Shown here piece by piece: positions 42,001 to 54,000 of a stretch of 64,000 bases of DNA (the first letter of the stretch is position 1; each line of letters begins with the position of its first letter). Source of the stretch: Escherichia coli (GTDB lineage Bacteria > Pseudomonadota > Gammaproteobacteria > Enterobacterales > Enterobacteriaceae); assembly GCF_965641715.1 (NCBI RefSeq), contig NZ_OZ282453.1, one strand, 5' to 3'. Position numbers: made by a program.

Positions 42001-45000
42001 ACTCGATCTAAACGCCCTGAACGAACTGCCGAAGGTGGATCGCATTCTGGCGCTGGCGGAAACTAACGCCCAACTGGAAAAACTGGATGCTGAAGGCCGC
42101 GTAGCCTGGGCGCTGGATAATCTGCCCGGTGAATATGTGCTTTCTTCCAGCTTCGGCATTCAGGCGGCGGTGAGCCTGCATCTGGTGAATCAGATTCGCC
42201 CGGATATTACAGTGATCCTCACCGATACCGGTTACTTGTTCCCGGAAACCTACCGCTTTATTGACGAGTTAACGGACAAACTGAAGCTCAACCTGAAAGT
42301 GTACCGTGCTACCGAAAGCGCAGCCTGGCAGGAAGCACGCTACGGAAAACTGTGGGAACAGGGCGTTGAAGGCATTGAAAAGTACAATGACATCAACAAA
42401 GTCGAACCGATGAACCGGGCGCTGAAAGAACTTAACGCGCAAACGTGGTTTGCTGGCCTGCGCCGCGAACAATCCGGCAGCCGCGCCAATTTACCGGTGC
42501 TGGCAATTCAGCGTGGCGTATTTAAAGTGCTGCCGATTATCGACTGGGATAACCGAACGATATATCAGTATCTGCAAAAGCATGGCCTGAAATATCACCC
42601 ATTATGGGACGAAGGATATTTATCGGTGGGCGATACCCATACAACCCGTAAATGGGAACCCGGCATGGCGGAAGAAGAAACGCGTTTCTTTGGCTTAAAA
42701 AGGGAATGTGGGTTACACGAAGGGTAAATATTGCCGGATAAATTAAACGCCTCTGTCAGAAATGATGGGGGCGTTTTTATTTTGCGAGCAGTATTCCTGA
42801 TTTTAAACGTGAACGCCGCTGGAAGAATTATCAGGTATAGAATGGCGTCGGGTGCTTGAGGCTGTCTGGCGTTAAGCATTCGCGAGGTTCCAGATGGACA
42901 AAAGCCCCAGGCGATATTTCTATCAACCTGAGGCCAGCGTTCGAACCTAAGCAATTCGGATGTTAGTCTCTTCTTTGCAGGGAGGCAAGACATGTGTATA
43001 TCACTGTAATTCGATATTTATGAGCAGCATCGAAAAATAGCCCGCTGATATCATCGATAATACTAAAAAAACAGGGAGGCTATTAATGGAACCTTTTAAA
43101 TATATATGCCATTACTGGGGAAAATCCTCAAAAAGCCTGACGAAAGGAAATGATATTCATCTGTTAATTTATCATTGCCTTGATGTTGCTGCTGTTGCAG
43201 ATTGCTGGTGGGATCAATCAGTCGTACTGCAAAATACTTTTTGCCGAAATGAAATGCTATCAAAACAGAGGGTGAAGGCCTGGCTGTTATTTTTCATTGC
43301 TCTTCATGATATTGGAAAGTTTGATATACGATTCCAATATAAATCAGCAGAAAGTTGGCTGAAATTAAATCCTGCAACGCCATCACTTAATGGTCCATCA
43401 ACACAAATGTGCCGTAAATTTAATCATGGTGCAGCCGGTCTGTATTGGTTTAACCAGGATTCACTTTCAGAGCAATCTCCCGGGGATTTTTTCAGTTTTT
43501 TTGATGCCGCTCCTCATCCTTATGAGTCCTGGTTTCCATGGGTAGAGGCCGTTACAGGACATCATGGTTTTATATTACATTCCCAGGATCAAGATAAGTC
43601 GCGTTGGGAAATGCCAGCTTCTCTGGCATCTTATGCTGCGCAAGATAAACAGGCTCGTGAGGAGTGGATATCTGTACTCGAAGCATTATTTTTAACGCCA
43701 GCCGGGTTATCTATAAACGATATACCACCTGATTGTTCATCACTGTTAGCAGGTTTTTGCTCGCTTGCTGACTGGTTAGGTTCCTGGACCACAACGGATA
43801 CCTTTCTTTTCAAAGAAGATGCACCTTCAGGAATACAAGCGCTAAGAACATATTTTCAGGATAGACAGCAGGATGCGTGTCGGGTACTGGCGCTGAGTGG
43901 CCTTGTATCAAATAAGCGTCGTTATGACGGTGTACATGCCTTACTGGACAATGGCTATCAACCAAGACAATTACAGGTGTTGGTCGATGCTCTTCCTACA
44001 GCTCCCGGGCTGACGGTGATTGAGGCACCTACGGGATCAGGTAAAACCGAAACAGCGCTGGCCTATGCCTGGAAACTTATTGACCAACAACTTGCGGAGA
44101 GTGTTATTTTTGCCCTCCCTACACAAGCTACTGCAAATGCAATGCTCAGCAGAATGGAAGCGAACGCGAGCCGTTTATTTACCTCCCCAAATCTTATTCT
44201 TGCTCATGGTAATTCACGTTTTAACCACCTTTTTCAATCAATAAAATCACGCGCATTTACTGAGCAGGGGCAAGAAGAAGCGTGGGTTCAGTGTTGTCAG
44301 TGGTTGTCACAAAGCAATAAGAAAGTGTTTCTTGGGCAAATCGGCGTTTGCACTATTGATCAGGTGTTGATATCGGTATTGCCAGTTAAACACCGCTTTA
44401 TCCGTGGTTTGGGAATTGGTCGAAGTGTTTTAATTGTTGATGAAGTTCATGCTTACGACACCTATATGAACGGCTTGCTGGAGGCAGTGCTCAAGGCTCA
44501 GGCTGATGTGGGAGGGAGTGTTATTCTTCTTTCCGCAACCCTACCAATGAAACAAAAACAGAAACTTCTGGATACTTATGGTCTGCATACAGATCCAGTG
44601 GAAAATAACTCCGCATATCCACTTATTAACTGGCGAGGTGTGAATGGTGCGCAACGTTTTGATCTGCCAGCTCATCCAGAACAACTCCCGCCCCGCTTTT
44701 CGATTCAGCCAGAACCTATTTATTTAGCTGACATGTTACCTGACCTTACGATGTTAGAGCGAATGATCGCAGCGGCAAACGCGGGTGCACAAGTCTGCCT
44801 CATTTGCAATTTGGTTGACGTTGCACAACTATGCTTCCAACGGCTAAAGGAACTAAATGACACGCAAGTAGATATAGATTTGTTTCATGCGCGCTTTACG
44901 CTGAACGATCGTCGTGAAAAAGAGAATCGTGTCATTAGCAATTTCGGAAAAAATGGGGAGCGAAATGTTGGACGAATACTTGTCGCCACCCAGGTCGTGG

Positions 45001-51000: not shown

Positions 51001-54000
51001 GGCGTGACATGGAATGGACGTCGCTACGATCCGAAAGACTGGGAAAAGGGCGATACGGTCAACCAATGCATTAGCGCTGCAACTTCCTGTTTATACGGCG
51101 TAACTGAAGCGGCGATACTTGCAGCTGGTTATGCACCAGCTATTGGTTTTGTGCATACAGGAAAGCCTCTTTCCTTTGTTTACGATATCGCGGATATCAT
51201 TAAATTTGACACTGTTGTACCGAAAGCTTTTGAGATAGCGCGTCGTAATCCTGGTGAGCCGGACCGGGAAGTACGTTTGGCGTGCAGGGATATTTTTCGC
51301 AGTAGTAAAACATTAGCCAAATTGATTCCGCTTATAGAGGACGTGCTTGCTGCTGGGGAAATACAGCCGCCGGCCCCACCTGAAGATGCGCAGCCTGTTG
51401 CTATTCCACTTCCCGTTTCTCTGGGAGATGCCGGACATCGGAGTAGCTGAGATGAGTATGTTGGTCGTGGTCACTGAAAATGTACCTCCGCGCTTACGAG
51501 GCAGATTAGCCATCTGGTTGCTGGAAGTCCGTGCAGGAGTATATGTAGGTGATGTATCCGCAAAAATTCGTGAAATGATCTGGGAACAAATATCCGGACT
51601 GGCGGAGGAGGGCAATGTAGTGATGGCATGGGCAACGAATACAGAATCGGGATTTGAGTTCCAGACATTTGGAGTAAACAGGCGTACCCCGGTAGATTTG
51701 GATGGTTTAAGGTTGGTGTCTTTTTTACCTGTTTAAAAACAAGGAATTAGCTGATCTTTAATAATAAGGAAATGTTACATCAAGGTTGGTGGGTTGTTTT
51801 TATGGGAAAAAATGCTTTAAGAACAAATGTATACTTTTAGAGAGTTCCCCGCGCCAGCGGGGATAAACCGTGTCCGAATTACTACACCGCCGAACAAAAC
51901 GCGAGTTCCCCGCGCCAGCGGGGATAAACCATGATCGCCGCCATGATTACTTGCCTTTTTTGTGAGTTCCCCGCGCCAGCGGGGATAAACCGGTCAGCAC
52001 CGCGTGCTCTGCCTGCAGGCTGTCGAGTTCCCCGCGCCAGCGGGGATAAACCGTCTATATCGGTGCATATATCCCCGACGAAAAAGAGTTCCCCGCGCCA
52101 GCGGGGATAAACCGTATTCATATAAATCCTTATTTTAGATACAGCGGAGTTCCCCGCGCCAGCGGGGATAAACCGCCAGCTTCATAGATCTGGCTCACGT
52201 AGAGCGCGAGTTCCCCGCGCCAGCGGGGATAAACCAGCGGCGCATAACTGATAAACAATAAATGCCGCGAGTTCCCCGCGCCAGCGGGGATAAACCGGGC
52301 CATCACGGTTTTATTCAGGTTACTGCAGACGAGTTCCCCGCGCCAGCGGGGATAAACCGCTGCGCGATCCAGCGCTCGACTTTGATCGTGAGAGTTCCCC
52401 GCGCCAGCGGGGATAAACCGGGCGCACTGGATGCGATGATGGATATCACTTAGAATTCCCCGCCCCTGCGGTAGAACACCCAGCTCCCATTTTCCAACCC
52501 ATCAAGACGCCTTCGCCAACTCCTTCACCAGCGGTAGCATTATCCGCATAACGTCACGGCAGCGACGTTCTATTCTTCCAGGAAGTGCTTTATCAATATG
52601 TTGCTGATTATCCAGTCTTACGTCATGCCAGCTATTTCCCGCAGGGAATGCGGCTGTTTTTGCGCGTTGCTGATAACCATCTTTATTCCCAAGATTCCAG
52701 TTTGTCGCTTCCACCGAAAGTACAGCAATGCCCGCTTTGTCGAATATTTCTGCGTCATTACAACATCCAGTGCCTTTCGGATAATTTTTATTCAAACCCG
52801 GATTGGTCGTTGCGGCAATTCCATGACTACGCGCAATTGCCAGCGCCCTGTCGCGCGTTAATTTCCTTACTGCTTCAGGGGTTTTTACACCGCTGTTGAA
52901 ATACAATTTATCGCCAACAATTAAGTTATCGAGATTAATCACCAGCAGCGTATTTTTCTTTTCGGTGTCACTCATCCGCTTGAGTAAATTCTCAGCGCCT
53001 AATTTCCCTTCCTCTTCTCCACTGGTCGCCACAAATCGAATACCATACTCGGTAGGCGTATTTTTCAGGCGTTCTGCCAGTTCCAGCATGACACCTAAAC
53101 CTGCGGCGTTATCATCCATTCCTTGTAACGTCAGCCCGCCGAGATTGGCATCGGCGTCAGCATCGCTCAGCGGGGCGTAAGTATCCAGATGCGCCATAAT
53201 GATGATCTGCTGCGGCGCTTTGCCTTCATGAGCGGCAATCACCGTACTTCCCGTCACGTTATGCCAGCTCTTACGATTATCGCGGGCGGTATAAATATAC
53301 CGACTATTAAATGTCCGAATATCACTGCGATAACCCATTTGCTGAAACTGTTGGCGAATATAATCGGCAGATAACATTTCTGCAGGAGTTCCGGTCATGC
53401 GTCCCGGAAAGAAAGTAGCAATATGTCGTGCCTGAGTATTAGCAAAATCGCCAGGTTTAGGTGACGAGGCGTGTACGGGGAGAATAAAGCATACGCCGAG
53501 CGCCAGGGCAGCGGTACGGTGGCGCAATGCGGAAAACATAGTGAGTCCTTAAATACCATGCAAATTTTTTTACCGCCATAGTATGAAACTGCCGCTGCGC
53601 TAAAACAATTTCAAATCTTCCTAAACGCCCGAAATCCGGTGCCTTAAGCACTTTTTGATATTAGCTTTGCCAAATCGTTATTCCGTTAAGGAACTACTCA
53701 TTCTAATTGGTAATTTCATTCGTTCTCTTACGCTCCCTATAGTCGAAACATCTGATGGCAAGAAAATAGCGGTATTGCAAAGGAACGGTTATGGATCAAA
53801 AACGACTTACTCACCTGCGGCAACTGGAGGCGGAAAGCATCCACATTATTCGCGAGGTGGCGGCAGAATTCTCAAATCCGGTGATGCTCTACTCTATCGG
53901 TAAAGATTCCAGCGTCATGCTGCATCTGGCGCGCAAGGCGTTTTATCCAGGTACGCTACCTTTCCCGTTGCTGCATGTCGATACCGGCTGGAAATTCCGC

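Follow-up and report, generated by a model that had tools for sequence, protein, structure and literature searches.

Among CRISPR-Cas systems, type I-E is the best studied, and its K-12-type allele is found in E. coli at the cysH-iap locus. In K-12 MG1655, the system comprises the genes from cas3 (ygcB, b2761) to cas2 (b2754) and two arrays, CRISPR I and CRISPR II. A second E. coli I-E cas variant, carried by PapM-32-1 and O157-type strains, occupies the same cysH-iap locus with the same gene order and two array positions, and its repeat is near-identical to that of the locus analyzed here. The proteins of the second variant, however, differ in length from ours (casA is annotated at 520 aa and casB at 178 aa, for example), its array-1 repeats begin with GTG, and upstream of cas3 it has an intact hok gene.

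The steps of CRISPR immunity are established for the K-12 proteins, which are near-identical to those described below. If the proteins of the present strain act in the same way, the array would be transcribed from the leader promoter, and CasE would cleave the transcript at each repeat hairpin into 61-nt crRNAs. Cascade (CasA1B2C6D1E1) carrying a crRNA would then locate a matching protospacer beside an AAG, ATG, AGG, or GAG PAM, and Cas3, recruited by Cascade, would nick and unwind the target. Cas1-Cas2 would integrate each new prespacer (33 bp) at the leader end, with the final repeat base derived from the PAM. Both crRNA-guided interference and spacer acquisition are predicted for this strain; the evidence for them is indirect and consists of the lineage-specific leader-end spacers and the CCA-ending repeats described below.

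The cas genes and their chromosomal site

The locus lies in a 64,000-nucleotide stretch of E. coli contig NZ_OZ282453.1 (assembly GCF_965641715.1), to which all coordinates refer and which we call the window. We consider it highly probable (roughly 0.93) that the locus is a type I-E CRISPR-Cas adaptive immune system of the K-12-type allele, complete and intact in sequence, and that it serves two arrays. The system is already known: the locus is an ordinary copy of the textbook E. coli K-12-type system at its usual chromosomal site, between cysH/sokX and iap, and the K-12 synteny cysJIH-cas-CRISPR-iap-cysDN is kept. The initial annotation of this DNA had placed a complete I-E system of a well-described type at 43086-52481, and the eight cas genes, the leader, and the 10-spacer array were all recovered there, with genes in the order and of the lengths known from the K-12 I-E locus and with a matching leader and repeat. 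Profile matches and gene coordinates give the order cas3-cse1-cse2-cas7-cas5-cas6-cas1-cas2. As in K-12 MG1655, casA overlaps casB (by 8 nt) and casD overlaps casE (by 14 nt), at the two junctions where overlaps had been reported. None of the eight ORFs contains an internal stop, all lengths equal those of the K-12 counterparts, and re-translation revealed neither the frameshifts nor the premature stops that the initial annotation had named as grounds for doubt.

The eight Cas proteins are 96.5 to 100% identical to those of K-12, score above the curated cut-offs of type I-E-specific NCBIfam models (8/8), and retain the known catalytic residues. The type I-E signature genes cse1/casA (Cas8e) and cse2/casB (Cas11e) are both present above cut-offs, and the matched PADLOC models (Cas3e, Cas8e, Cas11e, Cas7e, Cas5e, Cas6e, Cas1e, and Cas2e) yield a I-E assignment. 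The K-12-type allele was recognized by the cysH-iap site, protein identity of at least 95%, and a K-12-like leader.

All eight genes are located on the + strand. The cas3 gene (43086-45752) encodes an 888-aa fused HD nuclease and superfamily-2 helicase that matches NF007248 over its full length (1608.8 bits; cut-off, 569), with the HD domain (TIGR01596) at residues 27 to 233 and the helicase domain (TIGR01587) at residues 309 to 715. Cas3 has the same length as its K-12 counterpart and is 96.5% identical to it; none of the 31 substitutions falls at a known catalytic residue, and H74, D75, K78, K320, D452-E-V-H, and S483/T485 are conserved. CasA (Cse1, Cas8e; 46167-47675, 502 aa) is the large subunit of Cascade and the one that reads the PAM. 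It scores 903.7 bits against NF007247 (cut-off, 576), also exceeds the cut-off of TIGR02547, and is 98.4% identical to K-12 CasA, with unchanged residues in loop 125-131. The remaining Cascade subunits are CasB (Cse2, Cas11e; 47668-48150, 160 aa; TIGR02548, 56.7 bits; cut-off, 28.5; 98.8% identical to K-12), the backbone protein CasC (Cas7e; 48163-49254, 363 aa; TIGR01869, 427 bits; cut-off, 178; 99.2%), CasD (Cas5e; 49257-49931, 224 aa; TIGR01868, 288.6 bits; 100%), and the pre-crRNA endonuclease CasE (Cas6e; 49918-50517, 199 aa; TIGR01907, 269.5 bits; 98.5%), in which H20 is kept. The spacer integrase Cas1 (Cas1e; 50533-51450, 305 aa; TIGR03638, 375.9 bits; cut-off, 215.6; 99.0%) retains all of the integrase residues E141, H208, D218, and D221, and Cas2 (Cas2e; 51452-51736, 94 aa) scores 141.7 bits against TIGR01873, above the cut-off, and is 96.8% identical to K-12 Cas2. 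The casD start was taken as the ATG at 49257, as in K-12 (the mechanical ORF begins at GTG 49251), and cas1 is given from 50533 (the mechanical ORF begins at TTG 50518).

The flanking genes of the window are closest to those of PapM-32-1 and A30 (98.6 to 98.7% identity), and among complete RefSeq genomes none reaches 99% identity over the flank (98 to 98.7% was found). For this reason an origin of the DNA outside E. coli was considered, but it was rejected in view of the 98 to 98.7% identity and of the E. coli name borne by the identical public proteins. The presence of a K-12-type cas allele amid flanks closest to PapM-32-1 and A30 implies a putative replacement of the cas allele by recombination at this locus.

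Arrays and leaders

Array 1 (CRISPR2.1 position; 51842-52481, + strand) comprises 11 repeats separated by 10 spacers. Nine of these spacers measure 32 nt and one 33 nt, and these are the only two spacer lengths in the system. Ten of the repeats (51842-52420) match GAGTTCCCCGCGCCAGCGGGGATAAACCG with 0 to 1 mismatches, and the repeat pattern occurs 27 times in the whole window versus 0 times in shuffles. The 29-nt palindromic repeat folds into a 7-bp hairpin (−15.1 kcal/mol, z = −3.6), which is lost in the degenerate terminal repeat (the eleventh; 52453-52481, + strand; 9 mismatches to consensus; fold of only −5.3 kcal/mol). The + orientation of array 1 is confirmed by the AAG PAMs found 5′ to protospacers when the spacer-sense strand is read. 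Rfam searches at gathering thresholds reported no CRISPR repeat family, returning CsrB and sok only.

The leader of array 1 (51737-51841, + strand) is 105 nt long with 28.6% GC, and the AT-rich leader, 29-bp repeats, and degenerate last repeat described in the initial annotation are thus all borne out. Over 125 nt, this leader and its K-12 CRISPR-I counterpart share 97.6% identity, and the 60 nt adjoining the first repeat do not differ.

While the range first assigned to the system holds for the cas locus and array 1, it omits a second array and a repeat remnant. Array 2 (CRISPR2.3 position, between queE and ygcE; 25349-26353, + strand) contains 17 repeats and 16 spacers, has the same repeat as array 1, and is served by the same Cas proteins; its leader and that of K-12 CRISPR II are 98.7% identical. 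A lone degenerate repeat at the CRISPR2.2 position (26858-26886, + strand; 6 mismatches to consensus) keeps the hairpin and is identical to the remnant repeat of K-12. K-12 MG1655 shares with the window the 29-nt repeat, the degenerate terminal repeat, the queE-ygcE second array, and the lone remnant, and its anchor spacer before the degenerate repeat matches ours at 31/32 positions. In contrast, the arrays hold 10 and 16 spacers here versus 13 and 6 in K-12, with the anchor alone in common, and array-2 repeats begin with GAG here but with GTG in K-12 CRISPR II.

Divergence of both arrays is concentrated at the leader end. The three oldest spacers of array 2 are common to PapM-32-1, while the 13 leader-proximal ones are absent there. 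Among 5426 E. coli complete genomes, only the repeats, leader, and anchor of array 1 are common to any, and spacers 1 to 9 have a single near-match in another strain's array.

Spacer targets and the history of the arrays

We label spacers by array (A1, A2) and by number from the leader (s). Targets were found for 10 of the 26 spacers over both arrays and are situated in a Rac-like lambdoid prophage, P2-like prophages, a prophage methyltransferase, and F-plasmid traD. Inspection by eye had initially named no targets; three of the 10 array-1 spacers now map to E. coli prophages, but searches of phages, plasmids, genomes, and viral contigs yielded no target for the other seven (16 of 26 overall). 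Five protospacers (A1s2, A1s4, A2s2, A2s3, and A2s14) all map to the same strand of one prophage, which is located at ttcA. Of these, A1s4 matches the exoVIII gene at 31/32 positions with an AAG PAM; A2s2, A2s3, and A2s14 also have AAG PAMs; and A1s2 matches at 27/32 positions. Spacer A2s13 is a perfect match (32/32, AAG PAM) to a P2-family capsid gene, and A1s7 matches the same P2-family prophage at 29 to 30 of 32 positions. Spacer A2s8 matches at 29/32 positions with an AGG PAM, and A2s16 matches F traD in ~1500 plasmids at 29/32 positions with an ATG PAM. For A2s5, a Nissle prophage is a better match than phage LLS (28/32, CAA flank), which we rejected as the target and retain only as a relative of that prophage match. 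The initial annotation had proposed checking the protospacer flanks for AAG or ATG PAMs. Across both arrays, AAG is present at 5 of the 10 mapped protospacers (p ~2e−7) and ATG at one, and an interference PAM (AAG, ATG, or AGG) is present at 7 of 10 (p ~4e−7); some flanks were read by eye.

A database comparison of the spacers, likewise proposed at the outset, gave array-1 spacers three prophage matches, none in phage records, and apparently none in true plasmids. The phage search (50,697 records; word size 11, E ≤ 1) returned no match to array-1 spacers. Among 72,556 plasmid records, the anchor spacer alone matched, in four records: three are chromosome-sized entries filed as plasmids, where the matches are presumably the CRISPR arrays of those entries, while the remaining record is a 293-kb plasmid. 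A 22-nt exact match to Serratia phage Scapp (E = 0.7) was rejected as probably due to chance. The orphan spacers A1s1, A1s3, A1s5, A1s6, A1s8, and A1s9 share no exact 24-mers with IMG/VR viral contigs, and A1s1 has no match in one genome per GTDB species, which shows that the genome sequenced here does not serve as a species representative. An off-array scan of the window allowing up to 6 mismatches detected no self-targets within it. Because most spacer matches carry 1 to 5 mismatches, protection now against the sampled elements is uncertain.

Two repeats end in CCA, and the spacers that follow them are the only two whose protospacers carry A at position −1. These repeats fit slipped acquisitions, in agreement with Swarts 2012 (PMC3338789). 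We infer that the system was active in the past of this lineage, with a Rac-like lambdoid phage as the probable target of primed adaptation. Spacer A2s14, common to PapM-32-1, mismatches the Rac-like prophage at seed positions 2 to 4. The four lineage-specific spacers A2s2, A2s3, A1s4, and A1s2 are spread over both arrays and target the same strand as A2s14, the first three with AAG PAMs and A1s2 as a slipped acquisition. Under priming, the ancestral A2s14 would have come first, and the other four would have been acquired subsequently. That the two arrays keep a natural footprint of primed adaptation is, in our estimate, close to an even chance without reaching it. If so, the E. coli I-E system, supposedly silent, would have been turned on and undergone priming under natural conditions in this lineage.

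The same five spacers might instead stem from independent naive acquisitions, or from selection for targets in the early region, an explanation that we take seriously at somewhat less than even odds. With five protospacers only, strand agreement alone gives p = 0.06, and the early recombination region holds four of the five; spacers could also accumulate from such a region through free DNA ends or strong selection. However, the seed mismatches to the sampled prophage belong to A2s14, the oldest of the five; the four younger, lineage-specific spacers are better matches, and three of them fall within 3 kb of A2s14. Such a pattern of same-strand spacers was described for priming by Swarts 2012 (PMC3338789).

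Probable silencing and use of the system

K-12-type systems are silent in the laboratory. The 414-nt cas3-casA intergenic region (45753-46166), which corresponds to the Pcas control region of K-12, has 30% GC and is 98.8% identical to its K-12 equivalent; given this identity, H-NS probably keeps the operon silent in the laboratory, as it does in K-12. Silencing of Pcas by H-NS and its activation by LeuO are extrapolated from K-12 experiments (Pul 2010 and Westra 2010, as cited in PMC10910852). Simple scans for sigma-70 promoters and terminators in the control region and the leader gave results at or below shuffle expectation.

We also considered whether the locus is a silent relic whose sequence is intact but which confers no immunity in nature, its arrays being old and static and its spacer matches fossils. 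The near-identity of the control region to the silenced K-12 region favors this possibility, as do the lack of known targets for most spacers, the anchor spacer shared with K-12, and the coexistence of A2s16 in the species with ~1150 F-like plasmids bearing a near-match. E. coli arrays have also been reported as stable and are thought to be inactive in the laboratory (PMC10910852). Nevertheless, we judge a relic unlikely. The eight ORFs are uninterrupted and retain their catalytic residues, array 1 is unmatched in the complete genomes beyond its repeats, leader, anchor, and one near-match, and the 13 leader-end spacers of array 2 are lineage-specific. Moreover, the perfect match of A2s13, with its AAG PAM, to a circulating P2-like prophage argues for a fairly recent acquisition.

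As a model type I-E system whose exact sequence is already public, the locus has little importance beyond annotation. What modest value it has lies in showing cleanly, in a natural strain, behavior established in the laboratory: a PAM-derived last repeat base, slipped acquisitions, targeting of one phage by multiple same-strand spacers, and spacers that match prophages and not sequenced lytic phages. If the strain were de-repressed, we would predict resistance to P2-like phages, to the Rac-like phage, and possibly to F-type plasmids, which offers a usable hint for phage and plasmid work with this lineage.

The suggestion that the locus is not type I-E, or that its cas cluster is mis-assembled or pseudogenised, has a negligible probability and is refuted by the scores of every gene above equivalog-level cut-offs, by the intact ORFs, by 5918 nt that are 100% identical to an independent public assembly, and by eight exact proteins in public E. 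coli records. The identical stretch of that assembly (GCA_053638755.1, contig DBKRGK010000001.1) extends from casB to cysD without differences, includes all 10 array-1 spacers, and represents the same lineage as the window, of which roughly 24 contigs are public. Overall, the eight Cas proteins and the whole of array 1 are found identically in public E. coli assemblies.

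The cas genes and their setting

The cas region and its adjacent array form a complete CRISPR-Cas system of type I-E, and the initial annotation, which had placed such a system at 43086-52481, was real and rightly interpreted. An unbroken series of ORFs runs along the + strand from 43086 to 51736, and all eight products clear, by a wide margin, the curated cut-offs of NCBIfam models specific to type I-E (Cas3, 1609 bits against 569; CasA, 904 against 576; CasB, Cas7e, Cas5e, Cas6e, Cas1e and Cas2e also above theirs). PADLOC names the same products Cas3e, Cas8e, Cas11e, Cas7e, Cas5e, Cas6e, Cas1e and Cas2e. 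The genes had been described as intact and full length, with overlaps of casA with casB and of casD with casE. Every cas gene indeed has the length and start codon of its counterpart in E. coli K-12 MG1655 (K-12), none carries an internal stop indicative of a frameshift or premature termination, and the overlaps measure 8 nt and 14 nt, respectively. Mechanically called ORFs of casD (GTG) and cas1 (TTG) begin slightly upstream of the K-12 starts; the K-12 ATG codons are conserved at 49257 (casD) and 50533 (cas1), and we prefer them.

Protein identity to K-12 ranges from 96.5% (Cas3) to 100% (CasD). The 53 substitutions in total leave untouched H74/D75/K78, K320, the D452-E-V-H motif and S483/T485 of Cas3, H20 of CasE, E141/H208/D218/D221 of Cas1, and loop 125-131 of CasA.

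The gene order is cysJ-cysI-cysH, a sok-like RNA, cas3 to cas2, the array, iap, cysD and cysN, in the reverse of the K-12 map orientation. GC content is about 45% in the cas block (43000-51800) compared to 55.5% in cysJIH, and the 414-nt cas3-casA intergenic region (30% GC) is 98.8% identical to K-12; the low GC content of both fits horizontally acquired, H-NS-bound DNA. The cysH-cas3 spacer has 98.3% identity to K-12 and contains a sok antitoxin match at the K-12 sokX position (Rfam, 102.6 bits, 42850-43006), a site without an intact Hok-size ORF, whereas in the baboon-derived strain PapM-32-1 an intact Hok/Gef gene is annotated there. Silencing of the K-12 control region by H-NS and its activation by LeuO are experimental results (Pul 2010 and Westra 2010, as cited in PMC10910852). 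Because of these results, we infer that the control region in the window would be regulated in the same way.

We found no departure from K-12 in architecture, proteins or expected regulation: this is the canonical type I-E system and the one studied most, and it is already known. All eight exact protein sequences are public as named E. coli Cas proteins (Cas3 on 691 contigs, Cas1 on 57), and over 5918 nt, a stretch that takes in all ten spacers of the cas-adjacent array, a contig of GCA_053638755.1 has 100% identity to the window.

Two arrays and the extent of the system

Three independent repeat finders agree on ten 29-nt repeats with a periodicity of 61 nt at 51842-52420 in the cas-adjacent array (A1, 51842-52481). 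The array closes with a degenerate eleventh repeat (52453-52481; 9 mismatches), whose end coincides exactly with that of the feature as initially annotated. The described array of 29-bp repeats, ten spacers and a degenerate end repeat is thus borne out, as is its AT-rich leader (51737-51841, 28.6% GC), which is 97.6% identical to that of K-12 over 125 nt and differs from it at three positions, none of them within 60 nt of the first repeat. Nine spacers are 32 nt long and one is 33 nt. The window contains 27 matches to the repeat consensus GAGTTCCCCGCGCCAGCGGGGATAAACCG, against none in dinucleotide shuffles, and the repeat folds into the expected 7-bp hairpin (-15.1 kcal/mol; 0 of 200 shuffles as stable). 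In the degenerate terminal repeat the hairpin is gone (-5.3 kcal/mol), and for the tenth spacer (the anchor, A1s10; spacers are numbered from the leader), which matches that of K-12 at 31 of 32 positions, a proper 3′ handle made by CasE is therefore probably missing, as it is in K-12.

A second array (A2, 25349-26353), located between queE and ygcE, has 17 repeats of the same sequence, 16 spacers, and its own AT-rich leader, 98.7% identical to the K-12 CRISPR II leader. Beyond it, a lone degenerate repeat, ATGTTCCCCGCGTCAGCGGGGATAACCAT (26858-26886), is identical to one repeat of a small K-12 remnant array; K-12 retains two repeats and one spacer at this site, while the window has one recognizable repeat only. 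Since one set of Cas proteins acts on both arrays, the functional system extends beyond 43086-52481, a range that holds for the cas genes and A1 but omits A2 and the lone repeat.

Spacer targets

The initial annotation had left the targets to database searches, which differed in yield. None of the A1 spacers matched any of 50,697 phage records; the anchor alone had matches in PLSDB, mostly to chromosome-sized records filed as plasmids; and exact 24-mers of six orphan A1 spacers (s1, s3, s5, s6, s8 and s9) were not found in IMG/VR. E. coli chromosomes were a productive search set, in line with a report on E. coli as a whole (PMC10910852). When fetched prophages were scanned with all 26 spacers, matches occurred at ≤5 mismatches and none at 6 to 8, and the noise of the scan is therefore nil. 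Plausible sources were found for 10 of the 26 spacers, including 3 of the 10 in A1; seven A2 spacers have targets in prophages or in F-plasmid traD.

Five spacers match a Rac-like lambdoid prophage at ttcA in STEC379 and STEC384: A2s2 (30/32, AAG), A2s14 (29/32, mismatched at positions 2-4, AAG), A1s4 and A2s3 (both in the exoVIII gene, 31/32, AAG), and A1s2 (structural module, 27/32, AAA flank). Their protospacers lie on one strand of this prophage (12479-39143 of the fetched STEC379 locus), four of them inside 5.1 kb around gam and exoVIII. In the P2-like prophage of strain S1-KEN-03-A, A2s13 matches the major capsid gene (32/32, AAG) and A1s7 the opposite strand (29/32, CAA flank; 30/32 with a CTG flank in strain N1420). 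A2s8 matches a P2-like tail gene (29/32, AGG), and A2s5 a prophage N6-adenine methyltransferase gene of Nissle 1917 (30/32, AAA flank).

The oldest A2 spacer, A2s16 (26293-26324), which also stands in the arrays of about 80 complete E. coli genomes, has its match in the traD gene of F and of about 1500 further conjugative plasmids (29/32, ATG), with mismatches at positions 14, 18 and 30. In established Cascade structures, pairing skips every sixth position, which is flipped out. The sole effective mismatch would therefore be position 14, outside the seed.

The proposed check of protospacer flanks for AAG or ATG gave AAG at 5 of the 10 targets (p about 2e-7) and one of the four interference PAMs (as defined by Westra 2013, PMC3764190) at 7 of the 10 (p about 4e-7). 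This placement independently confirms the array orientation.

Array history and spacer acquisition

Among 5426 E. coli complete genomes, none shares A1 beyond repeats, leader and anchor; for A1s1 to A1s9, a near-match fell inside another strain's array in one case only. The flanks are most similar to those of baboon-derived strains (best identity, 98.7%). PapM-32-1, whose flanks are nearly the closest, nevertheless has the other of the I-E cas allele sets of E. coli (NZ_CP049204.1, 1076336-1084896), in which CasA and CasB are longer and the repeats are of the GTG type, and has only the three oldest A2 spacers in common with the window. These observations imply that the arrays diverged at the leader end and that recombination has swapped the cas alleles relative to the backbone, both known patterns.

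The ancestral spacer A2s14 is seed-mismatched, and four lineage-specific spacers on the same strand came after it. Such a succession is what primed adaptation would be expected to leave (PMC3338789). Primed adaptation against the Rac-like prophage, with its five protospacers, is a suggestive reading to which we give slightly less than even odds.

Two A1 repeats end in CCA instead of CCG (51903-51931 and 52208-52236), directly before A1s2 and A1s7, and in a prophage relative, position -1 of both spacers' protospacers is A. The A1s7 flank is CAA|G, in which the AAG PAM has slipped one base. The A1s2 flank is AAAAA|TG, and an overlapping spacer of strain 2017-02-2CC, offset by 2 nt, would have the ATG as its PAM. 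Experiments traced the final base of the repeat to the PAM, CCA-AAA pairs included (Swarts 2012, PMC3338789). The CCA repeats match this derivation and supply natural evidence for it and for slipped acquisitions.

Elsewhere in the window, and unrelated to the CRISPR-Cas system, is a full-length CsrB small RNA (2662-3021, Rfam, 384 bits). A 379-aa ORF (61367-62506) that is probably nlpD, based on K-12 gene order, contains 2.7 tandem copies of a 24-nt repeat (61565-61629).
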